Source of the DNA: Ruminococcaceae bacterium OttesenSCG-928-A16
GTDB taxonomy: Bacteria > Bacillota > Clostridia > Oscillospirales > Ruminococcaceae
Assembly: GCA_030267215.1 (NCBI GenBank)
Contig: JAJDJP010000003.1
Coordinates: forward strand, 23,512 to 87,511
DNA length: 64,000 nucleotides
Direction: 5' to 3'
In this document: in pieces, positions 35,851 to 61,758 of the stretch
How the letters are laid out: each line of letters begins with the position of its first letter
Position numbering within the stretch: position 1 is the stretch's first letter
The notes under the pieces: model-generated
The model's database searches: none
What the model was told of the DNA's origin: nothing
The model's input: the letters and a program-made list of their open reading frames with translations, nothing else
Program-made: the position numbers and the translations under genes

Positions 35851-36432
35851 GTGAAATATATGGGATTTTTAGGTGTATTGGTTGTGTTAATACTTATTAT
35901 TGTAGTGGTAATTATTGGCCTTATAGTTTGGGTTATTCGCGGCCAAAAAAACCTGGTGCATTCCGAAGAGCTTTGCGGCAACGCCCTTAGCCAAATTGGT
36001 ATACAGCAGGCTTCCCGCTGGGATGCGCTAACCGCACTTGCTGATTTAACCAAACAATATTCGGACCAAGAGTATAACACCCTAATGGACGTTATACGCG
36101 CGCGGCAAGGGGTAAACCCCAACACCCCCGCCACCGAGGTAGACCAGCAAGAGGGTATGCTGCAGCAGGCTACCAGCCGTTTAATGGCTGTTGCCGAGGC
36201 GTATCCCGATTTAAAAAGCAACACACTTTACCTTAAAACCATGGATAGCGTGCATGGGTACGAAGACAATGTACGCATGAGCCGCATGGTGTATAACGAT
36301 ACCGTTACCCGTTACAACCGGTTGGTGCGCAGCCTGCCTGGCTCTTTGGTTGCGGGCAGCTTGGGCTTTGCCCCGCGCGAATATTTGGAGAATGACGCCA
36401 CCAAGGCAAACATGCCCAGCATGGCCCGGTAA
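35851..36432 (+). CDS. lemA: LemA-family protein
   Basis: N-terminal TM helix and the LemA helical pattern (NALSQIGIQ..RWD.., YPDLKSN, YNDTVTRYN). Confidence 0.88.
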   Translation: MKYMGFLGVLVVLILIIVVVIIGLIVWVIRGQKNLVHSEELCGNALSQIGIQQASRWDALTALADLTKQYSDQEYNTLMDVIRARQGVNPNTPATEVDQQEGMLQQATSRLMAVAEAYPDLKSNTLYLKTMDSVHGYEDNVRMSRMVYNDTVTRYNRLVRSLPGSLVAGSLGFAPREYLENDATKANMPSMAR

Positions 36433-36554
36433 CATGTGCTAACAGTAAGCATATTACTATAAAGCATAAAAAGCGGCGCAGGCACACAGTAGCGGTGCTT
36501 GTGCCGTTTTATTTCGTTATGCATGTATAGGTGCAATGGCAAAGAGGGGATTAT

Positions 36555-38390
36555 ATGGGAAAAACCAAGGGAAACAAAAAAGTAGCAATAGCGGTGTTGG
36601 TTTTGTTAACCGTGCTGTTATACGGGGCGCTTTTGCCTTTTACAGTGCAGGCCGCCAGCCCTGCCACCCATAGTGTGGATATTACAGTGGACCTGAACGA
36701 CGACGGCAGCGGTGTTGTTACCGAAGTTTGGGACGTAACCATTGTGGATGGCACCGAGTATTATTTAACAAAATACGATTTGTTAAAAGGGCAGGATATT
36801 ACCGACCTTTCGGTAACCGATGAAACCGGGTGGCAGTATACCAACATAGGTGTGTGGAACAGCGACCGGGAGGGTGCCGAAAAATATGGCGAATGTGGCC
36901 TAATTGCCACCAAAGGCGGCTACGAAATTTGCTGGGGTGTTTATAACGATTATGGCAACCATGTGTACACCGTGCGTTATACCATGCCCGGCCTTGTGCA
37001 AAGCTACACCGAAGCCGATGCGATTATTCAGGCTTTTGTGCCCGAAAATCTGAATGAGTCTGTTCAAAAAGTGAACCTAGTTATACGGAAAGAGGGGCTA
37101 ACCTTTACCCAACAAAACACCGGTGTGTGGGGGCTTGGTGCTGCTGGCCAAATTTACGTGAATAATGGCCAGGTGGAATTAGAAACAACCGCGCCTTTAA
37201 ACAAAAGCAGGGCTGTTGGCGTAATGGTAGAATTTGACAAAGGCATGTTTAACCCGGTGGTGGATAATGGGCGAAGCTTTGTTGATGCAAAAGAACAGGC
37301 ATTGGAAGGGAGTGGCTACACCCCCGATGAAGAGGACGGAAAAGGTGGCGACATGATTGTGGGGGGCAGCAGCGGCAATTCCTCCACTTCAGGTTTTTCC
37401 TCTTTTTTTGGTGTGTTTTCAGGTTTTATCCCCCTTGTTATTGTAGTAGGGGTTGGCGCGCTTATTGGCTCTGCCAGTAAAAAAGGCAAAAAAAGTGTTA
37501 CATACAATACCCGCAATTATAAAAATGTGCCTTACAGCCGCCAATTGCCCTGGAACGGGGACTTGATAGCTACCTATGCCAGCTTAGAAGATTTAAAAAG
37601 CCTGCCCAACGAAGGCGCCATTATTGGGGCCTATATGTTGCGCTGGGTGCGCAGCCGCCAAATAGAAATGGTAAAGTATATGGGTGGCTTTTTTGGCACC
37701 AAAGAAGAAGATGCCGTAAAACTGTACCAGCCCCGCCCAACTATGGAGCCGTACGAGCGCCGCTTGTACGATATGCTGATATCGGCAGCCGGGAATGACT
37801 GGATTTTGCAAAGTAAAGAATTTGAAAAATGGAGCCAGCGCAATTACACCCAAGTGCAGGGCTGGCTAGAGCTAGGCAAAAATAACGGCAAAGCACAAAT
37901 GCGCAAGCTGGGCGCCCTTACCGAGCAAGAATCCAAAGCTTTTTTTGGGCTTATCCGTTATTACCCAACCGTGTTAACCCCACTGGGCGAAACCTATACC
38001 CAAAACATGTTTGGGTTTAAAAAATATTTAGAAGATTTTACCATTATCAACGAGCGGGAAGCCCGCGAGGTACAACTGTGGGACGAATACCTTGTATTTG
38101 CCCAGCTGTTTGGCATAGCCGACCGCGTGGCCGAGCAGTTTAAGCAGCTGTACCCAGATTATTTTGTGCAGATGGCAACCCAGATGGGTGCCAATGTGGA
38201 TATGTTTGATATTTTGATATTAACGCGCATGATGAACAGCTATGGCCGTGCGGCGGCGGCTGGTTACCACGCTGGTTATAACGCGGCACATAGCAGTAGC
38301 TATAGTGGCGGTGGCGGCGGCTATAGCGGCGGCGGTGGCGGCGGTGGCGGCGGCTTTGGTGGTGGCGGCGGTGGCGGCGGCACCCGCTAA
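36555..38390 (+). CDS. DUF2207-family membrane protein with a poly-Gly C-terminus (paralogue 1)
   Basis: Signal/TM segment, extracytoplasmic domain, mid TM helix, cytoplasmic domain (FKKYLEDFTIINERE) and a GGGG...TR tail. ATG at 36555 with GAGGGG SD. Confidence 0.8.
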   Translation: MGKTKGNKKVAIAVLVLLTVLLYGALLPFTVQAASPATHSVDITVDLNDDGSGVVTEVWDVTIVDGTEYYLTKYDLLKGQDITDLSVTDETGWQYTNIGVWNSDREGAEKYGECGLIATKGGYEICWGVYNDYGNHVYTVRYTMPGLVQSYTEADAIIQAFVPENLNESVQKVNLVIRKEGLTFTQQNTGVWGLGAAGQIYVNNGQVELETTAPLNKSRAVGVMVEFDKGMFNPVVDNGRSFVDAKEQALEGSGYTPDEEDGKGGDMIVGGSSGNSSTSGFSSFFGVFSGFIPLVIVVGVGALIGSASKKGKKSVTYNTRNYKNVPYSRQLPWNGDLIATYASLEDLKSLPNEGAIIGAYMLRWVRSRQIEMVKYMGGFFGTKEEDAVKLYQPRPTMEPYERRLYDMLISAAGNDWILQSKEFEKWSQRNYTQVQGWLELGKNNGKAQMRKLGALTEQESKAFFGLIRYYPTVLTPLGETYTQNMFGFKKYLEDFTIINEREAREVQLWDEYLVFAQLFGIADRVAEQFKQLYPDYFVQMATQMGANVDMFDILILTRMMNSYGRAAAAGYHAGYNAAHSSSYSGGGGGYSGGGGGGGGGFGGGGGGGGTR

Positions 38391-38532
38391 CTTGCCCTAT
38401 GCGCATGGCACAGTTTGTGTTATGTATGCCCCCGCTGCCAAAAGCAGGGGCATACTTTGCCAAAAAAGCTTTTTATTTGGTTATAAGCCCGTAAGCGGCA
38501 TACCAAAAAAACGGGTTAAAGGGGTATTGCAA

Positions 38533-40329
38533 ATGGGTAACCGTAAGGGCGTGCCAATTAAAGCGGCAGGTTTTTTGGCCTTGCTGCTTATATTACTTTG
38601 CTTATTTTTATACCAGCCGGTACAGGGGGCCAATGCCGCCATACGCAGCATTGATATTATGGTGGATTTGCAAGAGGACGGCAGTGCACATGTTACCGAA
38701 GTGTGGGACGTAACCATTGTGGATGGCACCGAGTATTATTTAACAAAGCACAACCTGTTAAAAGGGCAGGATATCACCAACCTTTCGGTAACCGATGAAA
38801 GCGGGCGGCGGTATACCAACATAGGTGTGTGGAACAGCAACCGGGAGGGTGCCGACAAATTTGGCGAATGCGGCCTAATTGCCACCAACGGCGGCTACGA
38901 AATTTGCTGGGGTATTTATAACGATTATGGCAACCATGTGTACACTGTGCAATACACCATGGCCGGCCTTGTGCAACGCTATAAAGGCGGTGTTGCCCTT
39001 AACCAGTGGTTTATTTCTAAAGAACTGCTTTCGTACCCCGAAGAGATAAGTGTGGTGATAAACAAGCCGGGCACCACCTTTACCAGCAACGATACCAAGG
39101 TGTGGGCATATGGCTTTACCGGCGATATTTATGTAGAAAATGGGCAGGTAGTGGCAAACAGCAGCAAGCGGCTATTTTCTAAAAACTATGTTTCGGTGCT
39201 GGCGGTATTTGAGGGCGGGCAGTTTAGCCCGGCAGTAAGCAGTAGCAAAACCATTGAAAAAGTAAAAAAGGACGCCATGGAGGGCAGCCAATATATTAGC
39301 CCGCTGCGGCGAGTGCAAGAGTTTGCCGCGGAACACGGAATTGGTGTAATTCTTACACTGGTTGGAGTTATTTTGCCAATTACAATTTATTTTTTACGAT
39401 GGGTGAAAGGGTTTTTAACAAGGCTACGCAAAAAAAGCGGTAGGGGCGTGCGCAGCGAGCAGTTTGGTTTGCTGGGCAAACAATATAAAAAGGTTGCGTT
39501 TTGCCGAGCATTACCGTGGAAAAACAACGTAATTATTACCCATACCGCCATGAACGAACTGGGCCTGTTAAAAAACGAAGGTACCCTTATTGGCGCTTAC
39601 CTGCTACATTGGTTGCAAAACCAGCAGGTGAAACTGGTAAAAAAACCGGCGGAGGGCAAGGGCAAAGAAATGGATGCCATTGAGTTGCAACCCATTGTGC
39701 CCGGCATGCAAGAGTGTGAGCTTGAACTGTACCATATGCTGGCGGCAGCGGCCGGCAAACCAGATTTTGTTTTGGAAAAAGATGAGTTTAAAGCCTGGGC
39801 CAAGGTGCACCACAAACGCGTGGGAGAATGGTTTGCCAAGTGCAAAAAAGTTGGCGAAAAAGAAATGAAAGAGATGGGTGCGCTTGCCAAAGGGACGAAA
39901 GAAGTAAGAACCATTTTTGGCAAAAAAATAAAGCATCCGGCTATTGTAGCAACAAAGGCTGGTGTACAGTATGCAAAAGAGATGATGGGCTTTAAAAAAT
40001 ACCTGCAAAACTTTACCATTATTAACGAGCGGCAGCCCCGCGAAGTTGAATTGTGGGAAGCATATTTGGTGTATGCGCAGGTGTTTGGCATTGCCGATGC
40101 TGTGGCAGAACAGTTTAAACAGCTGTACCCGGCTTATTTTAATCAGCCACAAATGCACTATGGTGGCGCAGAGAATATGGAGGTTGTTACCCACCTAACC
40201 AGCAGTTATGGCATTGCCATGGCCACCGGGTATAACCGTGGGCACTATGATGCAATTAGCAGAAGCAGTGGTAGCAGCGGAGGTGGTGGCAGCAGTAGCA
40301 GCAGCGGTGGTGGCGGCGGCACCCGCTAA
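38533..40329 (+). CDS. DUF2207-family membrane protein (paralogue 2)
   Basis: Same architecture as paralogue 1. I take the ATG at 38533 as the start; the ORF-track start at 38242 overlaps the previous gene in its Gly-rich region. Confidence 0.8.
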   Translation: MGNRKGVPIKAAGFLALLLILLCLFLYQPVQGANAAIRSIDIMVDLQEDGSAHVTEVWDVTIVDGTEYYLTKHNLLKGQDITNLSVTDESGRRYTNIGVWNSNREGADKFGECGLIATNGGYEICWGIYNDYGNHVYTVQYTMAGLVQRYKGGVALNQWFISKELLSYPEEISVVINKPGTTFTSNDTKVWAYGFTGDIYVENGQVVANSSKRLFSKNYVSVLAVFEGGQFSPAVSSSKTIEKVKKDAMEGSQYISPLRRVQEFAAEHGIGVILTLVGVILPITIYFLRWVKGFLTRLRKKSGRGVRSEQFGLLGKQYKKVAFCRALPWKNNVIITHTAMNELGLLKNEGTLIGAYLLHWLQNQQVKLVKKPAEGKGKEMDAIELQPIVPGMQECELELYHMLAAAAGKPDFVLEKDEFKAWAKVHHKRVGEWFAKCKKVGEKEMKEMGALAKGTKEVRTIFGKKIKHPAIVATKAGVQYAKEMMGFKKYLQNFTIINERQPREVELWEAYLVYAQVFGIADAVAEQFKQLYPAYFNQPQMHYGGAENMEVVTHLTSSYGIAMATGYNRGHYDAISRSSGSSGGGGSSSSSGGGGGTR

Positions 40330-40416: not shown

Positions 40417-41415
40417 TTAGGCTAAAATGGCATCAATAGCGGCCAATTCATCGGGGGCAAAGGTGGTTTTTTCTAGCGCGCCAATGTTTTCGGCAATTTG
40501 CTGCGGGCGCGAGGCACCGATAAGCGCAGAGGTTACGGTAGGGCGGCGCAGCACCCAGCTTAGGGCCATTTGGGTTAGGCTTTGGCCACGGTTTTGGGCT
40601 ATTTCGTTTAGTTTTTGCACCTGCTGCACCATTTGGGGTGTAACAGAGGTATCTTTCAGGTAGCGGCCATCGGTGCTCATGCGGCTATCTTTTGGAATAC
40701 CGTTTGCGTATTTGCCGGTAAGTAAACCCTGTGCCAGCGGCGAGAATACAATGCAGCCAAGGCCGTTTTGGTCCAGGGTATCCAGTAGGGCTTCTTCTGG
40801 CCCACGGGCAAACATGCTGTACCGCACCTGGTGAATAATAAAAGGTGTGCCAAGCCGCTGCAAAATGGCGGCTGCTTTGGCGGTATCTTCGGCGCTGTAG
40901 TTAGAAATACCCACATACAAGGCTTTGCCCTGGCGCACAATCAAATCCAGCGCACCCATGGTTTCCTCCAGCGGGGTGTTTGGGTCTGGCCGATGATGGT
41001 AGAAAATATCCACATAGTTTAACCCCATACGGGTAAGGCTTTGGTTTAGGCTGGCAACTAAGGTTTTTTTGCTGCCCCACTCGCCATAAGGGCCGGGCCA
41101 CATTTCGTAGCCGGCTTTGGTAGAAATAACAAGTTCATCGCGCAGGGTGCCGCTAAAATCTCGTTTTAGTATTTGGCCAAAATTGCGCTCGGCCTCGCCA
41201 TATGGGGGGCCGTAGTTGTTGGCAAGGTCGAAATGGGTAATGCCCAGGTTAAAGGCCGTTTGGCATAGGGCACGCTGGGTTTCGAAAGGGGTAATTTGGC
41301 CAAAATTGTGCCACAACCCCAGCGAAATACCCGGTAGTTTAAGCCCGCTTTTGCCACAATAGTTGTAGGTCATGGTATCGTAGCGCTCGGCGGCGGGGCT
41401 ATAGGTTTCATTCAT
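40417..41415 (-). CDS. Aldo/keto reductase, YghZ/Gpr-like
   Basis: 332 aa with CGKSGLKLPGISLGLWHNFG and DLANNYGPPYG motifs. Confidence 0.85.
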   Translation of the reverse strand: MNETYSPAAERYDTMTYNYCGKSGLKLPGISLGLWHNFGQITPFETQRALCQTAFNLGITHFDLANNYGPPYGEAERNFGQILKRDFSGTLRDELVISTKAGYEMWPGPYGEWGSKKTLVASLNQSLTRMGLNYVDIFYHHRPDPNTPLEETMGALDLIVRQGKALYVGISNYSAEDTAKAAAILQRLGTPFIIHQVRYSMFARGPEEALLDTLDQNGLGCIVFSPLAQGLLTGKYANGIPKDSRMSTDGRYLKDTSVTPQMVQQVQKLNEIAQNRGQSLTQMALSWVLRRPTVTSALIGASRPQQIAENIGALEKTTFAPDELAAIDAILA

Positions 41416-41732: not shown

Positions 41733-41866
41733 GTAGAACCTTCTTTTTGTTTTTTCACTGTGCCCTACATTAAATACTATACGGCGCTAAGATGTTGTGA
41801 TACTCTTGGTTGCCGCCAGTCCAACTCTCTGCGCTTCCCGCCGCAGGCGGGAAGTACACAGAAACC

Positions 41867-42868
41867 CTATGGTACCGGAATATTCGGCCGATCTTGGTCA
41901 CCGTCGGCCCGGAACATGGTAAAGTTTTGCGGGTTATTGGTAAAATAATAGTACTCGATATTTTTTTGAAGTAGCGGTGTTAGGTAGTTGGGAATGATGT
42001 TGGCATCGTCCTCGGTACGCTCGCAAAATCCGGCTTCTTGCAAGGTTTTGGCAGGTATGCCAGCGCAATACAAATCGGCGTATTCAGCGTTTTGTCCAGC
42101 TATCAAGGCGTCGATAGCGCTGCCTAGCTGGGGTAAAAAATCCGCTTCGCCTATATAATCTACAATGCGCAGGGCGTGTGTGCCCTGCACCGGCACTGTG
42201 CGGGTAACCAGCAGGGCGGCCGGCGTGGCCTGCCCCGGTAAATAGCCACCCAATACGTTGTATTGCTGCCGTGGATAGGCATAATAGCGGCGGGCAAGGT
42301 ACCAAAAATCTTTATAAGGGTTGTGGTTTTGTGGTGGGGTAAAACCACTTGCCTGCAATGCTTGCACCGTGGGCAGCGGTTGCAAAGTTGCCACACCGCT
42401 TACCGGCAAAATATGCTTGTGGGCAATGTGCGCTACCACATAGGTAGTGCGGTTTGCCAGCCGGTAAAAATGGCCCACCCGCCCGGTGGTATAGCCCAAA
42501 AACTCGTAAAAAGGGCGGGTTTTGGGGCGTATATTGTTGCAGGCCAGCGTGCCGCTGCCGGTAAGCGTGGGCAGGGCAGCCATAAGCTCTAGCCCGGCGC
42601 CGCTTTGCTTTTTGTCGGCTACCCAAATAGACACCCAAATATCTGGTTTTAGGGCTTGGCTGGCAGGCACAAACCCGGCCAAAGCGGCCAATTTGCCATC
42701 GGCTTCGGCAAGGGCAAAGCGCAGGGTATTATCATCTGCCAAATAGTAGTAGTCAAAAAAATCTGGCAAATTGATAATGGGGTGCTTTTCGCCCCAGTGG
42801 GTATTCATAAACTGAATAATAGCGGGCCTATCGGCCAGGGTGGCCTGCCTAAAGGTGTATGCCTGCAC
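41867..42868 (-). CDS. GNAT-domain acyltransferase with an uncharacterised 200-aa C-terminal domain
   Basis: N-terminal GNAT fold pattern (ATLADRPAIIQFM...GAGLELMAAL...FYEFLGY). GTG start directly abuts the SDR stop (TAAGTG). Confidence 0.6.
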   Translation of the reverse strand: MQAYTFRQATLADRPAIIQFMNTHWGEKHPIINLPDFFDYYYLADDNTLRFALAEADGKLAALAGFVPASQALKPDIWVSIWVADKKQSGAGLELMAALPTLTGSGTLACNNIRPKTRPFYEFLGYTTGRVGHFYRLANRTTYVVAHIAHKHILPVSGVATLQPLPTVQALQASGFTPPQNHNPYKDFWYLARRYYAYPRQQYNVLGGYLPGQATPAALLVTRTVPVQGTHALRIVDYIGEADFLPQLGSAIDALIAGQNAEYADLYCAGIPAKTLQEAGFCERTEDDANIIPNYLTPLLQKNIEYYYFTNNPQNFTMFRADGDQDRPNIPVP

Positions 42869-43609
42869 TTAAACCGCGCTCCCTCCGGTAATGGGCAGTG
42901 TAATGCCGGTAATAAAACGGGCTTCTTCGCTTAGCAAAAAGGCCATGGCGGGCACAACGTCGGCCGGGGTGGCGTTGCGGCCCATGGGGTTTGCCTCGGC
43001 GGCGGCCTGCACTATCAAATCAGGGGTATCGGTTAAAAACTTGGTTTCCATCATGCTGGGGGCAACACAGTTTACCGTAACACCGCTGGCGGCATAATCG
43101 GCCGCAAGGCTTTTGGCAAGGCCGTGCAATGCTTCTTTTGCCATTACATAGGCGGCGGTGTTTTTGGGCGGCACCCCTAACACATAGCTGGTAAGCATAA
43201 ACAAAACCCGGCCATTTTTGGCTTTGGCCATTTTTGGCAAAAACTGTTTGCAAATAGCGGTGGCGGCACCAGCCTGCACCTGCATATCCAGCGCAAAGCG
43301 GGCTTCATCAAAATTTTTAAACTTTGTGTTTACCACCCGCAGGGCGGGCAGATGCACAATGTGGGTGGGGGTGGGCAGGGTTTGCTGCACGTTGGTTAAA
43401 AACAAGTTTACGGCGGCAGGGTCGGCAAGGTCCACATCGTAGGTGCGTATTTGGCCTTTAAATTTAGCGCACAGCGGGGCAAGGTGGCTTAAATCTCCAT
43501 AGCCTTGGGCCACCACAATATCTTCTTTGCTGCCGGCGGTAAGCAAACGGTCTATCAACAGGCAGCCAACATCGCTAGAGGCGCCGGTTATAAAATAAAC
43601 ATTTCCCAT
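42869..43609 (-). CDS. SDR-family oxidoreductase (ketoreductase-like)
   Basis: TGASSDVG Rossmann motif and YVMAK (YxxxK). AGGAGG SD. Confidence 0.85.
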   Translation of the reverse strand: MGNVYFITGASSDVGCLLIDRLLTAGSKEDIVVAQGYGDLSHLAPLCAKFKGQIRTYDVDLADPAAVNLFLTNVQQTLPTPTHIVHLPALRVVNTKFKNFDEARFALDMQVQAGAATAICKQFLPKMAKAKNGRVLFMLTSYVLGVPPKNTAAYVMAKEALHGLAKSLAADYAASGVTVNCVAPSMMETKFLTDTPDLIVQAAAEANPMGRNATPADVVPAMAFLLSEEARFITGITLPITGGSAV

Positions 43610-43712
43610 GGTTGCTTCCTCCTAATAATAGGTTAATAATAAATAGTTGCCAGCCACAATGAAAGGCAAACACCCGAAGCAGAGCCTAGCGGGTGTTTGG
43701 TGTTGGCAACAA

Positions 43713-44129
43713 CTATTTTTCTACCCCGGCTTTTATAACGCCGCGGGTTACTTTGGTGCCGTTTTGGTTGGTAATAACGGCCTTAATGGTAATGGTGCTA
43801 AAGGTTTCGTTTACCTCTTGCACGGTGCCGGCAACGGTTAGCACATCGCCAATATACACCGGCTTTACAAATTTTGCTTCTACGCTGTGCAGCAGGCAGG
43901 TGGCACCCGGCAGGTACACCCCGGCCAGTGTGCTAAACAGGCTTGCGCCCAGCATGCCATACACAACGCGCCCGGCATGGCCACGCTTTTTGGCGGCCTC
44001 CTCGCTCATGTGTATCGGCGAGTTATCGCCGGTGATGGCGTAAAATTGGGCCATTTTTTCCTCGGTGACGGTGGTGGTAAAACTTTCGGTTTGGCCCACC
44101 GTTAAATGGGCCATGGTATAGGCATTCAT
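43713..44129 (-). CDS. MaoC-like hot-dog dehydratase
   Basis: 138 aa with the ITGDNSPIH hydratase motif and a hot-dog fold pattern. Confidence 0.85.
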   Translation of the reverse strand: MNAYTMAHLTVGQTESFTTTVTEEKMAQFYAITGDNSPIHMSEEAAKKRGHAGRVVYGMLGASLFSTLAGVYLPGATCLLHSVEAKFVKPVYIGDVLTVAGTVQEVNETFSTITIKAVITNQNGTKVTRGVIKAGVEK

Positions 44130-44159
44130 GGCAGTTCCCCTTTAAGCTTGGCAGCTATA

Positions 44160-44408
44160 TTAAGCGGTTAAACGCACAACCAAATCCAACAAATCGCCAA
44201 CATCTTGCAGTCCGCGCACGTCGGCCAGGTTAAACTTTAAGCCATACTTTTTTTCAATGGCGGTAAGCAGGTTAATCTGCTCAAGGCTATCCCAATCCTC
44301 AATATCTTCGGCGTTGGTTTGGCGGGTTAGCACAATGGTTTCATCATCAAAATTATCGCGAAAAATCTCCTGCACTTCTTGCAATAGCTGTTCTGGGTTC
44401 ATAAACAT
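44160..44408 (-). CDS. Acyl carrier protein
   Basis: 82 aa with the DWDSLEQINLL phosphopantetheine-Ser motif. The start overlaps the upstream stop (TAATG). Confidence 0.88.
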   Translation of the reverse strand: MFMNPEQLLQEVQEIFRDNFDDETIVLTRQTNAEDIEDWDSLEQINLLTAIEKKYGLKFNLADVRGLQDVGDLLDLVVRLTA

Positions 44409-46180
44409 TATCCCTCTACTTTCATAACGGTGTTTTTGGGTTGGTAGCTGGCCGGTACGTTGTAGCTAAATACGCGCTCCTGCTCGGTTTCGCTAACCAA
44501 AGTAAAGCCAATTGTAGCATAAAAGTCTTTCACCAACAAGTTTTTTGCGGTGGGCAACCAGCGGCCGGTAATGGTGGTAATGCCACGCTGTTTTGCCGCC
44601 TGCACCAGTGCGTCAAACATGGCATATTCCAGATGGCGCTTAAAAACACGGCAGCTCATAATCCACAGGTCAATGTTCAGCGTTTGGCCTTGTATGCTGC
44701 CAATAATAGCCGAGGTTATACCGTTGTCGCCAAATTTATCTACCAATTTGCCCGAAAGCGTAATAAACGCATCGCTTTGCATGCAGTGCTCGGTTTCGGT
44801 GTTGGTGTAGCGGCGGGTGGTTAGGTTAAACTGGTTGGTTTTGTTAATTAGCTGGGTAACCCGCTCTAGCTGCTGGGGGTTAAAGGGCACAATTTCGGCA
44901 GTCATTTCAAGGCTTTTCAGGTAGTCTTCGTAGTTGCCAAAGCTGTGTTCTAGCTGGGTGCGCTGGGCGTTTTGCTTGTACATTTCGCCCCGCTTAATGT
45001 CGTCGGCCGAAAGGCCGCTTACCTCAAAATACCCGGCACGGTCTAACAGAGCAATCGATTGTTCGGGCACGGCAACCGGCGGCACCGTAACTTCGGGCAG
45101 CTCTTGCATTACAAGTTCCCGCTCGGCCGGGTTATCATCCATAAAAACAAAGCTATCGGGCAAAATGTTTAAGGTGGTTGCCATTTGGGCAATGCTGTGG
45201 GTTTTGGGGCCCCAATTGGCCTCGAAACACAAAAAGTCTTCTCGTTTTAGCGGGCTATCGGCCCGGGCAAAACCACTTTCGGCGGCGGCTTCTTCGTTTT
45301 TGCTGGCAACGTTTAGCAAAACACCACGCTGGGCTAACATTTTTAAATACTGCTGTAGCTCGGCATAGGCCATGCCGGTGGGGGTTTCGCTGCCAAGCTC
45401 AATGCCTTCAGGGCCAACTTCGCCAACAACGCCGCCCCAAAGGGTATTGTCTAAATCTAGCGCAAGGGCTTTTTTGGTGCGGCCAAACAGGCTGCCCATT
45501 TGGCTGGCAAGGCTGTGCCCCAATGCGGGGATAAACTCGACCGCGCAGCAATATTTATACGCGTACCAGGTAGAAATATCGCACCAGGCATCTAACCCGT
45601 GTAGGGCGGCAAGGTAGGCAAGGTCATGAATATAAAAGCCGGGGTGGCTGCTGGCGTATTCTGCCATGCGGGTGTTCATGGCGCGGGCATGGTGTACCCG
45701 GCCACGCATGTCGCTGGCGTCTAGGTTGCCAAAGTTGCGCCACAATGGGTCTTCAAAGTTGTTTTGCACCACCGGGCAGCCCAGCTTTTCGGCCGCCTGC
45801 CACACGGCTTCAAAATAGGCAAACTCGTCGTTCAACTTTTCGGCGGCTTCGGTGGGGGTATCGGCTGGGTTTGGCCACAGCCGCAGGTTGTGGTTGCTGG
45901 TGTGGATATACAAAATATCGGGTGCAAAGGCGGCAAGCGAGCCGTCGTCAAATACCACGTTTTGGTAAAAAAGGGCGTATTCTCCCTGCCAAAAGGTAGG
46001 GCGTATGCCAAGGTTTAGCAAAAACAGCTCCAGCATGTTTTTTATTTCGCCCACGGTGCTGCCGCCCACAATTGCAATTTTTTTATCGATAAGGCCGGGG
46101 GTTTGCAGCAGTTGTTTTTTTAGGGCGCGTTTTTTTTGCAAAACTTGGGCACCGTCAAACGGGTATTGCAACATTTCCAT
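44408..46180 (-). CDS. HAD-IIIC / FkbH-like protein
   Basis: 590 aa with the HAD motif LDLDNTLWGG, MDDNP and a C-terminal FkbH-type domain containing WIMSCRVFKR. AGGAG SD. Confidence 0.8.
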   Translation of the reverse strand: MEMLQYPFDGAQVLQKKRALKKQLLQTPGLIDKKIAIVGGSTVGEIKNMLELFLLNLGIRPTFWQGEYALFYQNVVFDDGSLAAFAPDILYIHTSNHNLRLWPNPADTPTEAAEKLNDEFAYFEAVWQAAEKLGCPVVQNNFEDPLWRNFGNLDASDMRGRVHHARAMNTRMAEYASSHPGFYIHDLAYLAALHGLDAWCDISTWYAYKYCCAVEFIPALGHSLASQMGSLFGRTKKALALDLDNTLWGGVVGEVGPEGIELGSETPTGMAYAELQQYLKMLAQRGVLLNVASKNEEAAAESGFARADSPLKREDFLCFEANWGPKTHSIAQMATTLNILPDSFVFMDDNPAERELVMQELPEVTVPPVAVPEQSIALLDRAGYFEVSGLSADDIKRGEMYKQNAQRTQLEHSFGNYEDYLKSLEMTAEIVPFNPQQLERVTQLINKTNQFNLTTRRYTNTETEHCMQSDAFITLSGKLVDKFGDNGITSAIIGSIQGQTLNIDLWIMSCRVFKRHLEYAMFDALVQAAKQRGITTITGRWLPTAKNLLVKDFYATIGFTLVSETEQERVFSYNVPASYQPKNTVMKVEG

Positions 46181-46618
46181 GTCGGGTTCACTCCTGGTTT
46201 TGGGGGCTGTGGCAAAACAAAAACCCCTGCATTACATTTTTAGTAATATAGCTTTATATAGTATACCATTTTATAGCGGGCAAAAAAAGTGGTGGTTATA
46301 TAGGCAAGCACAACCGTGTTGTTTTTAACCGGTGGTATTGTAAGTTTGCAAAAAGGTGTGGGGTTGCCATTTTTAGCAACCGCCAAAACCCCCTTTTGCG
46401 ATAATACATATTGCCCTGCATACCCATTTGCCTTGCGTGCTTGCAAAGTGCGGTGGGCAGCTAAAAAAGTACGCAAAAAATAATGAAAATGAAGCTTTTT
46501 TGTAATTGTTTATTGCCGGCAACCTGTGGTATACTTATAGGCGGATAATTGGATAGATAACACGGGGCTGTTATGCATGTTTGCAGCGTGGCCTTGTGGG
46601 TACAGATAAAAGGAGGCC

Positions 46619-49447
46619 TTGCCGTTGTCGCGCAGGTTGGATAAAAAGAAGAAAAAGCAGGCGCAGCAAAGGCAGGCGCAACAGCAGGCGGCAGCCGCAG
46701 AAAAACAGCTGGCCACCCCTGCCCCCGAAGAAACACCAGACGAAAAACAGTTGGCTGGTGTTGTTTTGGTGCCAAAAACCGAAAAGGAAAAACCAGCCCA
46801 ACAAACCAAACAAGAAAAACAACCGGCAGCGGCGGAAGAAAAAAAGCCCGAGGCGAAGCCGGACGAGGTGCCGCCTGCGGCCCCCAAAAACAAAACAAAA
46901 AAAGCGGCCGGCAAAAAAAAGAAGGCGGCCCCCGCTGCGGCAAAAGCAACCGATAAAACCCCTGAAAAAGAACCCGCAGCGCAGGATAAGCCTGCCGAAA
47001 AAGAACCGCAAGAGAAAGAACCGCAAGAGACGAAACAGGGGCCAGAAGAAAAAGCAGGCGAAGAAGCAAAAAATACCCCAGAGCCTGCGGCGGAAAAACC
47101 CGCTGCGGCAGTGGTGCAAGGCGGCAAGCGCAAAAAGCGCAAAGCCCCCAAAAAACGTAGCGTGTTTGGCATTATTGTGGCCAGCATGTGTAAGTTTGTT
47201 TTTGTGTTAGTGTGTGCCGGCATTATAGCGGTAAGCGTTATGGCGGTGGGGGTTAGCCAGTACATGGCCGACGCCACAGCCAACGATGCCGACTTGCTGG
47301 ATTTGGACAACCTGAAACTGAACCTTACCACCAACATTTGGGCACCTAACCCCAAAAACCCCAATGCCGAGGCCGAGGGTGATTACATAAAGTACCAAGA
47401 GCTTACCGGCCCCCAGCACCGCATTTGGGTAGATTGGAACGATATCCCACAAAACTTAAAGGATGCCATTATTGCCATTGAAGACCGAGAGTTTTTAAAC
47501 CACCACGGTGTTTCGTTCCGTCGCTCGGCCATGGCAGCGCTTAACCTTGTTTTCCCTACCTCCGAAACCGAGTTTGGCGCCTCTACCATAGAGCAGCAGC
47601 TGGTTAAAAACCTTACCGGAGACGACGAAACCGACTACCAGCGCAAACTGCGCGAGATGTTCCGCGCTTGGGGGATGGACAGCCGTTATTCGAAAGAAAC
47701 CATTTTGGAAGCCTACCTGAACACCATTTCGCTTTCGGGCACCATTGCGGGTGTGCAGGCCGGCGCGCAGGATTATTTTGGCAAAAATGTGCAGGATTTA
47801 GACCTTGCCCAGTGCGCCATGATAGCCGGTATTACCCGTGCCCCCGGCAAGTACGACCCCTACATGAACCCCGAAACCTGCCTGGCCCGCCGTAACTCGG
47901 TGCTGTACCAAATGCTGCTTACCGAGGCCATTACCCAAGAAGAATACGACGAAGCAAAGGCGAAGCCGCTGGGTGTAAAGGGCCGCACCAATACCTCAGA
48001 AGGTATGGTTATCAACTCTACCTTCTCCTATTTTTCCGATGCTGTGTTTAACGATGTAGTGCAGGACTTGATGGACCAGTATGGCTACACCAAAGAGGCA
48101 GCCAGGTACTTTGTGTACACCGGTGGCCTGCGCATAGAGGCCACGGTGGATATAACCCTGCAAGAGCGAATGGAAGAAATTTTTGAGCATGGGTACGATG
48201 ATACCGAAGACGCCTTTTTCACCAATTTGAGAGACCCCCGCAGCGGCCGGTTGTATAAAGACCGGCTGGGCTATAAAGAAGAGGTAGAGGATGCCGAAGG
48301 CAACACCGAAACCAAGCTGATATTGCCCCAAGCTGCCATGACAACCATAGATTATTCTGGCGCGGTGCGCGGTGTGGTGGGTGGCATTGGCGAAAAAGAG
48401 GGAGATTTGCAGCTAAACCGCGCCACGCAATCTCCACGGCAGGTTGGTTCTACCATGAAACCGGTGGCGGCCTACGCCCTTGCGATAGACCAAGGCCTTG
48501 TGAACTACTCGTCCATGGTGATGGATTCTGGCGTGCAGCCGGCCAACCCGCAAAAACCCAAACGAGACGAAGAAACCGGCGGTATTATTAACGATTGGCC
48601 CAAAAACTTTAGCAGCACCGAAAGCAAAATGTACCGCAACACAGCCATTCCGGTGGTTTCTGCCGTGGCAGAATCTACCAATACAGTGGCGGTGCGGGTG
48701 GGCATGCGGGTGGGTATAGACCCCATGTTTAACTTTTTAGAAGATACGCTGGAAATTACGAGCCTGGTGTCGGAAGACGAAAGCCCGGTAAACGACAAAG
48801 GCCCGTCGGCCCTTATTTTGGGCGGGCTTACCCACGGCATTAGCACGGCAGAACTAGCCGGTGCCTACCAGATATTTGGCAACGGGGGCCGGTTTAACAG
48901 CGTGCATACCTATACCCAAGTGCTAGATTCGAAGGGCAACGTAATTTTAAAGCCCGAGGTAAACCACACCCAGGCCATTAGCCCCGAGGCAGCTTATGTG
49001 ATGAACCGCCTGCTATACACCGTGTTGCGCAGCGGCAAAGCGCCGGGCGTGGCCGCTACCGCCAACCGCATGGCGCTGGAAGGCGAGATGGACTCGGTTG
49101 CCAAAACCGGCACCACCAGCGATGATAAAGACCGCTGGTTTGTGGGCCTTACCCCGTACTATGTAACGGCTATTTGGTGGGGGTACGATAACCCCAAATA
49201 TACTTTTTATAATAAGTGGAGCCCGGTTGCCACGGGCAATATTCCCCCTTTGCTGTGGAAAACCATTATGGAAGAACAGCAAGAGGGTATGCCGGTGAAG
49301 GAGTTCCCCGAAAAGCCGGAGGGTGTGGTGGAAGCATATTATTGCAGCGTTACCGGCGAGCGTGCGGGCGGGGGTTGCCCCAAAGGCGGCATCGGTTACT
49401 TTATCCCGGAGATTAGAACGGCCAATGTGTGCAGTTGGCATAACTAA
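46619..49447 (+). CDS. Class A penicillin-binding protein (PBP1A-type) with a 180-aa low-complexity cytoplasmic N-terminus
   Basis: Glycosyltransferase motifs (EDREFLNHHGV, RKLREM) and transpeptidase motifs (STMKP, KTGTT). The exact start among the TTG codons at 46619 and 46625 is uncertain. Confidence 0.9.
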   Translation: MPLSRRLDKKKKKQAQQRQAQQQAAAAEKQLATPAPEETPDEKQLAGVVLVPKTEKEKPAQQTKQEKQPAAAEEKKPEAKPDEVPPAAPKNKTKKAAGKKKKAAPAAAKATDKTPEKEPAAQDKPAEKEPQEKEPQETKQGPEEKAGEEAKNTPEPAAEKPAAAVVQGGKRKKRKAPKKRSVFGIIVASMCKFVFVLVCAGIIAVSVMAVGVSQYMADATANDADLLDLDNLKLNLTTNIWAPNPKNPNAEAEGDYIKYQELTGPQHRIWVDWNDIPQNLKDAIIAIEDREFLNHHGVSFRRSAMAALNLVFPTSETEFGASTIEQQLVKNLTGDDETDYQRKLREMFRAWGMDSRYSKETILEAYLNTISLSGTIAGVQAGAQDYFGKNVQDLDLAQCAMIAGITRAPGKYDPYMNPETCLARRNSVLYQMLLTEAITQEEYDEAKAKPLGVKGRTNTSEGMVINSTFSYFSDAVFNDVVQDLMDQYGYTKEAARYFVYTGGLRIEATVDITLQERMEEIFEHGYDDTEDAFFTNLRDPRSGRLYKDRLGYKEEVEDAEGNTETKLILPQAAMTTIDYSGAVRGVVGGIGEKEGDLQLNRATQSPRQVGSTMKPVAAYALAIDQGLVNYSSMVMDSGVQPANPQKPKRDEETGGIINDWPKNFSSTESKMYRNTAIPVVSAVAESTNTVAVRVGMRVGIDPMFNFLEDTLEITSLVSEDESPVNDKGPSALILGGLTHGISTAELAGAYQIFGNGGRFNSVHTYTQVLDSKGNVILKPEVNHTQAISPEAAYVMNRLLYTVLRSGKAPGVAATANRMALEGEMDSVAKTGTTSDDKDRWFVGLTPYYVTAIWWGYDNPKYTFYNKWSPVATGNIPPLLWKTIMEEQQEGMPVKEFPEKPEGVVEAYYCSVTGERAGGGCPKGGIGYFIPEIRTANVCSWHN

Positions 49448-55586: not shown

Positions 55587-55666
55587 GATTAAGTATGACA
55601 AAGGATTCACTATTGCTGCCAGTTTTGGCAGTTTATACTTTTGCAATAAAGAAAGGGGCAACTGTT

Positions 55667-56695
55667 TTGAGCAAGCAAACTGTGGGAATTTTGGGATATG
55701 GGTTATATTTGCCAGAACATTATATGACAGCAGCCGAAATTGCTGCGGCAACCGGCGGCATGTGGGCCGAAGAAGCGATTGTAGAAAAACTAGGCATTGT
55801 AAAAAAAACAATACCCGGGCCAGATGATGGCACCCAAGAAATGGGGGTGCGTGCTGCACAAGACGCTTTGCGCCGCACCGGGCTGCACCCCAAAGAAATT
55901 GATGTGATTTTGTGTGTGGGCGAAGAGTGGAAGGAATACCCTCTTACCACCTCCGCCTTGTATATTCAAGATAAAATTGGCGCGGTAAACGCCTGGGGCA
56001 TTGATATTGCCAACCGCTGCTGCACAACCTGCACTGCCATAAAAATGGCCAAGGATATGCTGCTGGCCGATGATGAAATTGACACCATTTTAATTGCCGG
56101 CGGTTACCGCAACGGCGATTTTGTGGATTACACCGATAAAAATATGAGCATGATGTATAACCTGGCAGCAGGTGGTGGTGCCTTAATTTTGCGCAAAGGC
56201 ATGCAGCAAAACCTGGTGCTGGGCAGCCACATTATGGGCGATGGCAGCCTGGCCCGCGCAGCAGGTGTGGAAATTGGCGGCATTAACAAACCTTTTACCA
56301 AGGATAACATTGCGGAAGGGTATAAATCTTTGCGGTTGATGGACGCCCAGCGCATGAAGGACCGCCTGAACGAAGTGAGTGTGCCCAACTGGTACCACTG
56401 CATTGACGAAAGCCTGCGCAAAAGCGGTGGGCTAACCCGCAAAGACATTGGGTACCTTGCCATTTTGCATTTTAAGCGCAGCCAGCACGTGCACATGGTG
56501 GCAGAGCTTGGCCTTACGCCAGAGCAAACCACTTATTTAGAAGACTATGGCCACGTAGGGCAAATTGACCAGATTTTATCGTTGTGCTTGGGGTTAGAGC
56601 AGGGCAAAATAAAAGACGGAACGCTGGTGAACATGGTTGCCGCAGGTATTGGGTATGTGTGGGCATCTACCTGTGTGCGCTGGGGCAAAGGCTAG
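55667..56695 (+). CDS. KAS III (FabH)-like condensing enzyme with an apparent Cys-His-His triad
   Basis: Thiolase-fold FabH-like ORF aligned by eye to E. coli FabH. Cys in ANRCCTT, His in ILHFK, and YGHVG where FabH has HGNTS. TTG start chosen from SD spacing. Confidence 0.7.
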   Translation: MSKQTVGILGYGLYLPEHYMTAAEIAAATGGMWAEEAIVEKLGIVKKTIPGPDDGTQEMGVRAAQDALRRTGLHPKEIDVILCVGEEWKEYPLTTSALYIQDKIGAVNAWGIDIANRCCTTCTAIKMAKDMLLADDEIDTILIAGGYRNGDFVDYTDKNMSMMYNLAAGGGALILRKGMQQNLVLGSHIMGDGSLARAAGVEIGGINKPFTKDNIAEGYKSLRLMDAQRMKDRLNEVSVPNWYHCIDESLRKSGGLTRKDIGYLAILHFKRSQHVHMVAELGLTPEQTTYLEDYGHVGQIDQILSLCLGLEQGKIKDGTLVNMVAAGIGYVWASTCVRWGKG

Positions 56696-56772
56696 TATTG
56701 TGCGCCGCCTGCTTAATAACAACATGACGCAAGATTCATATTGATAGAGCCATAGAATGGAGGAATGAATAG

Positions 56773-58086
56773 ATGTTTGACTACACCGCAAAAAAAATTA
56801 CAGTAGAGCAAGCCTTGGCACTTGTAAAAAGCGACGATAACATTACGGTGGGCATGGCCGGGGCCGAGCCGCTTGAATTTTTAGGCAAGCTGCACACCAT
56901 TGCAGATAGAGTGACCGACGTGACCGTGACAAGCTGCCTAAACACTGCACCGGGGGAGTATCTTTCGGAAAAATATTTAGAAAAGGCGTTTAAGCTGGAG
57001 TCCTGGTTTTATTCGCCCACGCTTCGCAAGCTAAACAAAACAGGGCGTGTTTCGTTTATTCCCAACAACCTGCATTTTTCTGGGTACAAGCGCAACTTTC
57101 ATAAAAAAACCAATATCTTTATCAGCTCGGCTTCTATGCCAGATGAAAACGGCCGTGTGCGGTTTAGCTGCGGAAATGTGTACGAGGAAGAGATTGCCAA
57201 AAAGGCAGATATTGTAATTTTGGAAATTAGCCCCAATATTCCCTATTGCCATGGCGAAAACTATTTAGAGTGGGATGAAATAGACCATGTGATTGAGTGT
57301 GACTATTTTCTGCCCACTATTCCGGACGTTATCCCCAACGACAAAGACCGGGAGATTGGCCAGTACATTGCCGAGCTAATTAACGATGGTGACTGTATTC
57401 AGGTTGGTATTGGGGGTATACCCAATGCCGTGTGCGAGTTTTTGGCCCATAAAAAAGATTTGGGCATCCATACCGAGATGATGACCACAGGCATTATGAA
57501 GCTGATGAAGTTGGGGGCCGTAAACGGCAGCAAAAAGCAAATGGATACCGGAAAAGTGGTGTGTGCGTTTGCGCTGGGCAACCAAGAAATGTATGAATTT
57601 ATGGACAATAACCCTGATATTTTGACCAAGCAAGGAAGCTGGGTGAATGACCCCAATGTAATTTGTGGCAACGATAACCAGGTGAGCATTAATACCTCGG
57701 TAGAGGTGGATTTGACCGGACAGTGCTGCAGCGAGAGTATAGGCAACCTGCAAATTTCGGGCACGGGCGGCCAAAGCGATACCGCCATTGGCGCCCAAAA
57801 CAGCAAAAATGGTCGCTCTATTATTGCGCTGTACTCCACAGCCATGGTTAAAAACCACGAAACAGGCGAGCGGGAAGAAGTTTCTAAAATTGTGCCCACA
57901 TTACGCCCAGGCGCGGCGGTATCGCTAAGCCGCAACGATGTAGACTGGGTAGTAACCGAGTTTGGCGCAGTAAACCTGCGTGGCACCTGTGTGCGCGAGC
58001 GTGCCGAATTGCTGATTAGCATTGCTCACCCCAAGTTTCGCAATGAACTGCGGGAAGAGGCTAAAAAACTGGAGTATTGGTTCTAA
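56773..58086 (+). CDS. Acetyl-CoA hydrolase/transferase-family CoA-transferase (4-hydroxybutyrate / butyryl-CoA:acetate type)
   Basis: 437 aa with the GTGGQSD motif and family-typical length. GGAGGA SD. Confidence 0.85.
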   Translation: MFDYTAKKITVEQALALVKSDDNITVGMAGAEPLEFLGKLHTIADRVTDVTVTSCLNTAPGEYLSEKYLEKAFKLESWFYSPTLRKLNKTGRVSFIPNNLHFSGYKRNFHKKTNIFISSASMPDENGRVRFSCGNVYEEEIAKKADIVILEISPNIPYCHGENYLEWDEIDHVIECDYFLPTIPDVIPNDKDREIGQYIAELINDGDCIQVGIGGIPNAVCEFLAHKKDLGIHTEMMTTGIMKLMKLGAVNGSKKQMDTGKVVCAFALGNQEMYEFMDNNPDILTKQGSWVNDPNVICGNDNQVSINTSVEVDLTGQCCSESIGNLQISGTGGQSDTAIGAQNSKNGRSIIALYSTAMVKNHETGEREEVSKIVPTLRPGAAVSLSRNDVDWVVTEFGAVNLRGTCVRERAELLISIAHPKFRNELREEAKKLEYWF

Positions 58087-58134
58087 AAATCCGAATACAC
58101 CCTGAAGCTACGTACAATAAAAGGAGATGGCGTG

Positions 58135-58950
58135 ATGGCTTCTTTTGTTTTTGAGGGCAAGGAAATTTATTATGAAAGCCATGGTGAAGGCGCGCCGTTA
58201 GTAGTGCTTAACGGCATTTTTATGTCCTGCGCATCGTGGGCGGCGTTTCGGCCTGCTTTTGCACAGCACAACCGCTTAATTTTGCTAGATTTGCTGGACC
58301 AAGGCAAAACAGAAAAGATGGACAAGGAGTATACGCAGGCGGTTCAGGCAGAGCTGCTGCTGGCGCTGCTTGCCCACCTGGGTATTTCTAAGGTGAACCT
58401 GATGGGGATTAGCTATGGCGGCGAAGTGGCTATGCGGTTTGCGGCGGCACACCCCGCAAAGGTAGAAAAGCTGGTGCTTGCCAACACGGCGGCCTACACT
58501 TCTAAATGGCTGAAAGACATTGGCCATTCGTGGGAATTTGCGTACGAAAGCCATAACGGGCACCACTTTTTTAAAACCTGCATTCCCATCGTGTATTCGC
58601 CCCAGTTTTACGAGGAAAACTACGAGTGGGCCAGCGCCCGGGAAGAACTGTTTGTAAAGGCCTTTACGCCAGAGATATATGACGCATTTGGGCGGCTTAC
58701 CCGCTCGGCAGAGGCGCACGATGAACGCCAAAACCTTGGCAAAATAACGGCGCAAACGCTGGTTATTTCTTCAGAGCTGGATTTTGTAACCCCGGTGTAC
58801 CAACAAAGGGAAATTGCGGCAGCCATTCATAAAGCGGCCCATGTGCTTATACCCGCGGCAGGCCACGCTGTAATGTACGAAAAACCGGCCGAGTTCACAT
58901 CAATTGTTTTAGGGTTTATAAATAGCAAAACAAATATGGAAGTATTATAA
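58135..58950 (+). CDS. Alpha/beta-hydrolase
   Basis: Nucleophile elbow GISYGG and a C-terminal GHAVM His motif. Confidence 0.85.
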   Translation: MASFVFEGKEIYYESHGEGAPLVVLNGIFMSCASWAAFRPAFAQHNRLILLDLLDQGKTEKMDKEYTQAVQAELLLALLAHLGISKVNLMGISYGGEVAMRFAAAHPAKVEKLVLANTAAYTSKWLKDIGHSWEFAYESHNGHHFFKTCIPIVYSPQFYEENYEWASAREELFVKAFTPEIYDAFGRLTRSAEAHDERQNLGKITAQTLVISSELDFVTPVYQQREIAAAIHKAAHVLIPAAGHAVMYEKPAEFTSIVLGFINSKTNMEVL

Positions 58951-58986
58951 ATTATTTTGAATTATTTTAAATGGAGGTATGAATGT

Positions 58987-59712: not shown

Positions 59713-59721
59713 AAAACAAAA

Positions 59722-59748
59722 GCGTTGCAGCCGGTGTGGCTGCAACGC
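59722..59748. terminator. Bidirectional terminator hairpin
   Basis: GCGTTGCAGCC-ggtgt-GGCTGCAACGC between convergent genes, with flanking A-rich and T-rich runs. Confidence 0.7.
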
Positions 59749-59764
59749 AATATTCTTTTGTTTT

Positions 59765-60376: not shown

Positions 60377-60473
60377 AATATTTCCTCTTATTCCCATTTA
60401 TTTAAGCTTAAACTTATTTTAACTGAAACAGACTTTAAATACAATTTGTTTTGCCATTTGAAGGAGAGTTGTT

Positions 60474-61679: not shown

Positions 61680-61726
61680 CAAGGCGCTTAGCTGGGGCAT
61701 ATGGTAAATGCTTAGCGCCTAATGGC

Positions 61727-61758
61727 AAAAAGGGCGGGAGCCTACAGCCCGCCCTTTT
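61727..61758 (+). terminator. Intrinsic terminator after the thiolase gene
   Basis: AAAAAGGGCGGG-9 nt-CCCGCCCTTTT. Confidence 0.75.

Follow-up and report, generated by a model that had tools for sequence, protein, structure and literature searches.

A family-wide FkbH, acyl carrier protein and tandem-GNAT cassette beside a class A penicillin-binding protein gene in Ruminococcaceae: a candidate system for acylating an envelope precursor

What would an FkbH-like glyceryl loader, an acyl carrier protein (ACP) and an acyltransferase make together with no polyketide synthase (PKS) nearby, and which molecule would receive the product? The question is raised by five minus-strand genes in a 64,000-nucleotide stretch of the genome of Ruminococcaceae bacterium OttesenSCG-928-A16 (assembly GCA_030267215.1, contig JAJDJP010000003.1, positions 23,512 to 87,511), referred to here in its full length as the window. 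The genes encode, in order of transcription, an FkbH-like protein of the haloacid dehalogenase class IIIC (HAD-IIIC), an ACP, a MaoC hot-dog dehydratase, a short-chain dehydrogenase/reductase (SDR) and a tandem GCN5-related N-acetyltransferase (GNAT). A previous sequence-only reading had predicted that this cassette makes a three-carbon (C3) acyl donor tethered to the ACP, and all five of its open reading frames (ORFs) were confirmed at 41867-46180. With slightly better than even confidence, we propose that the operon builds a C3 acyl donor on the carrier protein and transfers it to an amine-bearing envelope precursor. The parts are of known kinds and the chemistry is standard analogy. What is new is a core locus beside a class A penicillin-binding protein (PBP) in at least several dozen genera-level gut-commensal lineages, and a transferase belonging to a large, unmodelled tandem-GNAT family whose members in nonulosonic-acid loci stand with FkbH and ACP.

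The identity of the FkbH-like protein was established by profile searches, in which it scored above the curated cut-offs of TIGR01686 (303.1 bits, cut-off 146.65), TIGR01681 for HAD-IIIC (66.5, cut-off 35.75) and PF21211, FkbH_N (34.6, cut-off 27). Its residues 16-371 match the structural-genomics protein BF1531 (PDB 3slr) at 1e-44, and the motifs quoted by the sequence-only reading, DLDNTLWGG and WIMSCRV, were both found. The protein was aligned with FkbH homologues from the zwittermicin cluster (B. thuringiensis plasmid), S. meliloti pSymB and two nonulosonic-acid loci, and with three orthologues. Across these eight sequences D242-x-D244-x-T246, S293-K294-N295, D348-D349 and S509-C510-R511 are invariant, with the catalytic Asp and Cys retained. 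The matches listed in the FkbH homologue search were saturated with orthologues and told nothing about distant clades or about an FkbH in the FkbH-less lineage. The window protein shares with the FkbH/OzmB/ZmaN loaders a HAD-IIIC core joined to a C-terminal Cys domain, the DxDxT motif, the SCR cysteine and an adjacent dedicated ACP. The zwittermicin-cluster homologue (359 aa), presumably the biochemically characterised ZmaN, differs in lacking the ~230-aa FkbH_N domain that the window protein and BF1531 (3slr) have. By analogy with this family, the protein is predicted to be a glyceryl loader, which would take a glyceryl unit from 1,3-bisphosphoglycerate, dephosphorylate it, hold it on Cys510 as glyceryl-S-Cys and hand it on to form glyceryl-ACP.

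The next three proteins are what the sequence-only reading took them for. The ACP matches PF00550 with 22.1 bits (cut-off 20.8) and carries its phosphopantetheine serine in DWDSLEQ; further ACP models of NCBIfam match weakly, and the protein is 55-81% identical among orthologous loci. The dehydratase matches PF01575 with 58.5 bits and finds its nearest solved structures in human HTD2 (3ir3) and the PhaJ hydratases 5cpg and 1iq6. Its motif YAITGDNSPIH keeps the Asp and His of hydratase 2, with Ser in place of the canonical second Asn. The SDR matches PF13561 (118 bits), PF00106 (81 bits) and the ketoreductase family PF08659 (28.8 bits) and carries TGASSDVG, the Ser and YVMAK (YxxxK). Its best NCBIfam matches are FabG subfamilies, all under cut-off (best 124 vs 222). 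By analogy, it is predicted to act as a 2-ketoacyl-ACP (pyruvoyl-ACP) reductase.

The fifth protein, of 333 aa, found no match in Pfam or NCBIfam, even with the threshold relaxed to E = 10, and the PDB sequence profiles returned only a weak match (3fnc, E = 0.017). An AlphaFold2 model built with 29 homologues reached a pLDDT of 93.7 and a pTM of 0.90. Foldseek matched this model to the two-domain GNATs 2ozg, Eis2, VipF and N-myristoyltransferase with probability 1.00 and E-values of 1.6e-10 to 1e-8, at TM-scores of about 0.5 and sequence identities of 10-14%. The earlier designation as a GNAT fusion is therefore correct, since the structural search returns tandem-GNAT acyltransferases. CNNIRP and a C-terminal ADGDQDRP are invariant motifs of the protein, and its first GNAT domain contains a P-loop-like K-x-x-G-x-G segment (KQSGAG) in which G90 and G92 are invariant; the sequence of this loop fits the binding of a phosphopantetheine donor. 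Eis/Eis2, N-myristoyltransferase and VipF are alike in their two-GNAT fold of ~330 aa and in the pyrophosphate-binding loop of the N-terminal domain. They differ in using acyl-CoA as donor, where acyl-ACP is predicted for the window protein, and ADGDQDRP is undescribed for them. The FemX-type transferases, whose donor is aminoacyl-tRNA, offer a further analogy for tandem GNATs. An exhaustive profile search gathered 2108 tandem-GNAT clusters at 50% identity, 860 of them at E <= 1e-30, mostly full length and ending in GDGDQDRP(N/S). A literature search found no paper characterising the tandem GNAT, the cassette or the related module of sugar loci described below.

Taken in sequence, the five activities suggest the following route. 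Once glyceryl-ACP is formed, the MaoC protein would eliminate the 3-hydroxyl group to give 2-hydroxyacryloyl-ACP, tautomerising to pyruvoyl-ACP; the FabG-like SDR would reduce this to lactyl-ACP; and the tandem GNAT would move the C3 acyl group onto an amine. Species without MaoC and SDR would transfer the glyceryl unit instead, as the sugar-locus module probably does. That the unit is C3, that it ends as lactyl and that it goes onto nitrogen and not oxygen are all inferred, as is the acceptor. The sequence-only reading had compared the cassette with the BryA loading module, and the same domain set (dehydratase, ketoreductase, FkbH, ACP) is indeed present, as four discrete proteins. Loading modules of this composition belong to trans-acyltransferase PKSs, among them BryA (bryostatin) and that of FR901464. 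They share with the cassette the four activities and the proposed course from glyceryl through dehydration and reduction to a lactyl thioester. The window proteins differ in being discrete, in using a single hot-dog of the MaoC/PhaJ type rather than a PKS dehydratase, in having a FabG-like reductase and in the lack of a downstream ketosynthase; the only ketosynthase III (KSIII)-like gene lies 9 kb from the cassette, inside a fatty-acid/butyrate-type cluster. In the literature, FkbH loading is listed as yielding D-lactate-ACP (PMC7901079).

An FkbH-like loader (~36% identity) also stands beside an ACP on S. meliloti pSymB (L087, CP140921.1 1050793-1055827). The row consists of a membrane-bound O-acyltransferase (MBOAT), a protein annotated as a TonB-dependent receptor, an ACP and the FkbH-like HAD protein, and resembles a Dlt-like O-acylation set. 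Its transferase is a membrane MBOAT, of the kind acting in extracytoplasmic O-acylation, and not a soluble tandem GNAT. FkbH-ACP pairs would accordingly feed several types of envelope acylation outside polyketide synthesis.

To what extent is the cassette a property of the family rather than of one genome? The 333-aa protein returned 769 word-index matches, of which the named ones all belong to Oscillospiraceae or Ruminococcaceae, and with one genome scanned per species, at least 252 species carried a relative. The best 80 of these species loci, with ~10-kb flanks, were compared by tblastn of the window proteins; they include Faecalibacterium, Gemmiger, Subdoligranulum, Fournierella/Allofournierella, Ruthenibacterium, Anaerofilum, Pygmaiobacter and Owariibacterium. 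The full five-gene order is present in 50 of the 67 loci with sufficient upstream DNA. Five others (Ruthenibacterium spp., Owariibacterium) have FkbH-ACP-GNAT without MaoC and SDR, ten of the Gemmiger/Subdoligranulum group have ACP-MaoC-SDR-GNAT without FkbH (L065, L069-L073, L077, L078, L081, L083), and two are further reduced. At L015, FkbH and GNAT occur with no ACP at the locus, and components evidently act in trans in L015 and L024. A set of 80 metagenome loci repeated the pattern of the species loci; human-gut assemblies very commonly carry the form without FkbH, which accounts for 25 of the metagenome loci (e.g., L153). The variants without MaoC and SDR fit a role of both as tailoring steps on a glyceryl-ACP core. 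Sequence identities of the cassette track taxonomy and its position is stable across the family; it behaves as a core locus, not as a strain-variable glycan island. Five metagenome-assembled genomes titled 'uncultured Bacteroides sp.' (L030, L038, L045, L058, L064) carry a Ruminococcaceae-type PBP-cassette locus at 46-50% identity and are probably mislabelled bins.

The sequence-only reading had noted a PBP1A gene divergent from the cassette. In the window this is confirmed, a class A PBP with transglycosylase and transpeptidase domains lying on the plus strand, and comparison across genomes made the proximity recurrent, and thus stronger than a single locus had allowed. A class A PBP adjoins the cassette in 61 of the 66 informative species loci (57 divergent upstream, 4 downstream) and in 35 of the 37 informative metagenome loci. 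The gene-neighbourhood comparison identified the PBP as the sole recurrent neighbour; the other window genes tested reached at most 11 of the 80 loci. The outer flanks vary by genus and include CRISPR-Cas, MatE, Tex/YfhO, homoserine dehydrogenase and amylase genes. YfhO, Tex, LemA, DUF2207 and the aldo-keto reductase were considered as functional partners and rejected, each occurring in just 1-5 of the 80 loci.

A small ORF of ~100 aa, with a hydrophobic N-terminal anchor and a BofC_C domain (PF08955), lies between PBP and cassette in 45 of the 80 species loci, always divergent from the PBP (e.g., L001 5284-5583, L172 5991-6293, L174 6564-6869); the window and its closest relatives are without it. 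Two of three such ORFs tested scored 23.3 and 23.7 bits for BofC_C (cut-off 21). The domain match hints at a sporulation-related ancestry of the PBP.

The remote relatives of the tandem GNAT provide the second line of evidence on the acceptor. The window protein and a distant tandem-GNAT clade align with an hhalign probability of 100 (E = 1.8e-89), and by blastp with 26-33% identity (E 1e-43 to 1e-59); on sequence grounds, the two are unambiguously homologous. Six clade members on long contigs were examined for context. Five of them (L085, L086, L089-L091) lie in legionaminic-type nonulosonic-acid loci with NeuB, Epimerase_2, CTP_transf_3, DegT, PglD-like, CBS-NTP_transferase and Polysacc_synt_2 genes, and all five share a four-gene unit of Polysacc_deac_1, small ACP, tandem GNAT and FkbH. 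In the sixth, an ABC-transporter-type polysaccharide locus, the GNAT is joined by an SDR, an AMP-ligase and an ACP. Read most simply, these contexts mean that the tandem-GNAT family moves ACP-bound short hydroxyacyl groups onto sugar amines, in these loci after de-N-acetylation; most plausibly, the sugar-locus module re-acylates a de-N-acetylated sugar amine with glycerate. Probable links of the module are to N-glyceroyl pseudaminic and legionaminic acids, and also to the region around cj1302 in C. jejuni. Tannerella forsythia is an established source of an N-glyceroyl pseudaminic acid (Pse5Am7Gra), and the genetic basis of N-glyceroyl nonulosonic acids was still unassigned in 2017 and called 'a major challenge' (PMC5378307); cj1302, an FkbH-domain gene, lies within the C. 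jejuni flagellar glycosylation locus (PMC7099621). At L090, a FemAB-family gene (PF02388, 3213-4256) stands beside NeuB in the same locus as the deacetylase-ACP-tandem GNAT-FkbH module, and two tandem-GNAT-type acyl or aminoacyl transferases may thus tailor one sugar there.

The sugar-locus module and the window cassette have in common a homologous tandem GNAT with the GDGDQDRP tail, an FkbH 42-45% identical and a small ACP, all adjacent. They differ in that the window has no deacetylase, NeuB, aminotransferase or CMP-transferase, includes MaoC and SDR and represents a PBP-linked core locus; the sugar-locus clade also has a GIN-K-T segment where the window protein has CNNIRP. The Ruminococcaceae module is thus a variant with a dehydratase and a reductase, without the deacetylase and away from sugar loci. 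No nonulosonic-acid or glycan marker (deacetylase, DegT, PglD, NeuB, Epimerase_2, CMP-transferase, PseB-like dehydratase, LCP) was found by tblastn in the 80 loci with their flanks or in the 64-kb window. The sequence-only reading had considered that orthologous cassettes might always sit within polysaccharide or flagellin-glycosylation loci; this does not apply to the orthologues, none of which does so in the 80 loci, and it does apply to the remote homologues at 26-33% identity. A metagenome scan started from tandem GNATs of intermediate identity again retrieved mainly Ruminococcaceae-type loci, with no new context and no glycan locus containing MaoC or SDR. The nonulosonic-acid homologues probably indicate the origin of the system, and their sequence relationship points to an amine acceptor.

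Considering both lines, the most likely acceptor is a cytoplasmic, amine-bearing envelope precursor, either a peptidoglycan precursor or a conserved wall-polymer sugar. Such a conserved precursor is favoured because the cassette is inherited family-wide at a stable position, no deacetylase or sugar-pathway gene is nearby and the PBP is the only conserved neighbour. A narrower version, unlikely as it stands and offered tentatively, is that the cassette N-acylates a peptidoglycan precursor with lactyl (or glyceryl where MaoC and SDR are absent) and that the adjacent class A PBP polymerises the modified precursor. The acyl group would then go to UDP-MurNAc-peptide or lipid II, onto a free amine that belongs either to the diamino acid of the stem peptide or to an amino sugar.

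The main rival has the cassette act in trans to tailor a nonulosonic acid, or some other amino sugar, whose pathway is encoded elsewhere in the genome, the PBP being a conserved neighbour of no functional link. We regard this as possible, if improbable. It keeps its place because the search for nonulosonic-acid genes reached the ~10-kb flanks and not whole genomes, which also weighs against an envelope precursor as acceptor. All characterisable remote homologues sit within glycan loci, parts of the set can lie in trans (the ACP is missing at L015, and FkbH from 10 loci) and the PBP is not always beside the cassette. Yet a tailoring module of this kind would be expected to resemble a strain-variable glycan island, unlike a cassette found family-wide at a fixed position with identities that follow taxonomy; neither a deacetylase partner nor a sugar-pathway gene occurs within 10 kb in the 80 loci, and the PBP remains the sole recurrent neighbour. 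A soluble product, such as an amino acid, polyamine or similar metabolite bearing an N-lactoyl or N-glyceroyl group, is quite unlikely. In its favour, no transporter, glycosyltransferase or lipid-carrier enzyme belongs to the cassette, and small amines are known substrates of tandem GNATs such as Eis; however, the conserved block also lacks an exporter and an amine-supplying enzyme, and both the PBP neighbour and the sugar-locus relatives indicate the envelope.

Acylation of a protein, either at the lysine-rich cytoplasmic tail of the adjacent PBP or at an N-terminus in the manner of N-myristoyltransferase, appears very unlikely. The Foldseek matches N-myristoyltransferase, Eis and VipF do acylate proteins, and ahead of its membrane helix the window PBP has an N-terminal stretch of ~180 residues with abundant Lys, Glu, Pro and Ala (46619-47160, plus strand; start codon uncertain). 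Among cassette-linked PBPs, however, the N-terminal tails range from 0 to ~325 residues, several being nearly absent, so that no conserved acceptor segment exists and the tail was ruled out as acceptor. We give the least credence, practically none, to the cassette as a supplier of starter or extender units for polyketide or fatty-acid synthesis, whether methoxymalonyl-ACP, hydroxymalonyl-ACP, a tetronate unit or a lactyl starter. FkbH and ACP provide the opening steps of such pathways, and the same domain set has been proposed for lactyl-starter loading; the 80 loci, however, have no ketosynthase, FkbK, FkbI or FkbG homologue with the cassette, and the GNAT transferase always comes last in the operon. 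The cassette likewise differs from the methoxymalonyl-, hydroxymalonyl- and tetronate pathways in having no FkbK/FkbI/FkbG-type enzymes or PKS and in passing its unit to a GNAT; the acyl-CoA dehydrogenase at 62288-63427 belongs to a separate cluster 16 kb off. The sequence-only reading had noted no PKS, nonribosomal peptide synthetase or glycosyltransferase nearby, and the scanned ORFs (27 of ~51 of at least 100 aa, spanning 17.8-63.4 kb, with 1-17.7 kb outside the Pfam scan) include no PKS, nonribosomal peptide synthetase or glycan-pathway gene. The whole-window tblastn with nonulosonic-acid and glycan markers, one family-2 glycosyltransferase among the queries, was also negative.

Several further observations count against transfer of a C3 unit to an envelope precursor. 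The most serious is that FkbH is absent from 10 of the 67 species loci and from most long human-gut contigs, with the other four genes intact and equally conserved. In these cassettes either FkbH acts in trans or the ACP is loaded otherwise, in which case the acyl unit need not be C3. No replacement ACP loader was found within 9-10 kb of the FkbH-less loci, whose neighbours are FtsE, FtsX, M23, S41 and KsgA genes upstream and GH2, DUF2264, GH88 and ABC genes downstream; two look-ups of abundant FkbH clusters for a relocated copy showed the standard cassette only. Analogy alone sets the order and direction assumed here for MaoC and SDR, the SDR has no canonical Asn in its catalytic tetrad and falls under every NCBIfam cut-off, and no biochemically characterised member of the tandem-GNAT family was found. 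As for the PBP, five loci have other neighbours in its place, and its adjacency could be inherited synteny. The form with the PBP downstream is best read as the result of a local inversion; a link kept through rearrangement had been considered strong evidence and was downgraded, because the alternative arrangement is such a simple inversion.

The layout of the operon in the window is summarised in Table 1. The translational coupling claimed for all five genes stands for FkbH/ACP (TAATG) and SDR/GNAT (TAAGTG) and not for ACP-MaoC and MaoC-SDR, which are separated by 30 and 103 nt. The hairpin in the longer spacer (-33 kcal/mol, z = -3.3; none of 200 shuffles equally stable) may be an internal attenuator or processing site. 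The GC-rich hairpin that begins 13 nt past the GNAT stop is only terminator-like, as no T-run follows. An AGGAG ribosome-binding site precedes the FkbH ATG at 9 nt. An Rfam scan of the whole window matched no family, a scan for promoters and terminators told little, and no convincing promoter or regulator site emerged in the region between cassette and PBP gene.

Table 1. Features of the cassette and of the adjoining PBP gene, in window positions
Feature	Position	Strand	Basis or remark
FkbH-like HAD-IIIC protein, 590 aa	44408-46180	-	TIGR01686, TIGR01681, PF21211
ACP, 82 aa	44160-44408	-	PF00550, DSL serine
MaoC dehydratase, (R)-3-hydroxyacyl-thioester type, 138 aa	43713-44129	-	PF01575
MaoC-SDR spacer, stable hairpin then AGGAGG ribosome-binding site	43610-43712	-	folding vs shuffles
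FabG-like SDR, 246 aa	42869-43609	-	PF13561, PF00106, PF08659
Tandem-GNAT acyltransferase, 333 aa	41867-42868	-	AlphaFold2 and Foldseek
GC-rich hairpin, probable operon end	41834-41854	-	-25.6 kcal/mol, z = -2.8
Intergenic region between cassette and PBP gene	46181-46618		divergent genes either side
Class A PBP, 942-aa ORF	46619-49447	+	PF00912 188.8 bits, PF00905 64.9 bits

Other genes of the window were noted in passing. Downstream of the cassette, with a 92-aa membrane protein between, an aldo-keto reductase (40417-41415, minus strand) scores 455.5 bits for the NCBIfam L-glyceraldehyde-3-phosphate reductase (cut-off 448). It neighbours the cassette only in the window and L006 and is probably unrelated to it despite the C3 theme. 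On the plus strand, 35851-40329 encodes LemA and, after it, a pair of paralogous DUF2207 membrane proteins whose C-termini are glycine-rich, a trio otherwise seen only in L004 and L005. The fatty-acid/butyrate-type cluster at 55595-63427, apart from the cassette, comprises the KSIII-like protein, an acetyl-CoA hydrolase/transferase, an alpha/beta hydrolase, an SDR, a TetR regulator, a thiolase, a second MaoC protein and the acyl-CoA dehydrogenase.

The cassette is core to a family that includes the abundant human gut commensals Faecalibacterium, Gemmiger, Subdoligranulum and Ruthenibacterium. If transfer of a C3 unit to an envelope precursor is correct, FkbH chemistry would operate outside polyketide synthesis and lead from glycolysis to envelope decoration, and an envelope component of these commensals would carry a mass shift of +72.02 or +88.02 Da. 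The natural three-gene and four-gene variants provide a sharp predicted contrast, +88 vs +72 Da. Such a decoration may matter for immune recognition and for susceptibility to antibiotics or lysozyme. The N-glyceroyl substituents of pseudaminic and legionaminic acids, long without an assigned enzyme, would also gain a candidate family in the tandem GNATs. Should the acceptor be peptidoglycan, Faecalibacterium and its relatives would possess a previously undescribed, family-wide peptidoglycan modification.

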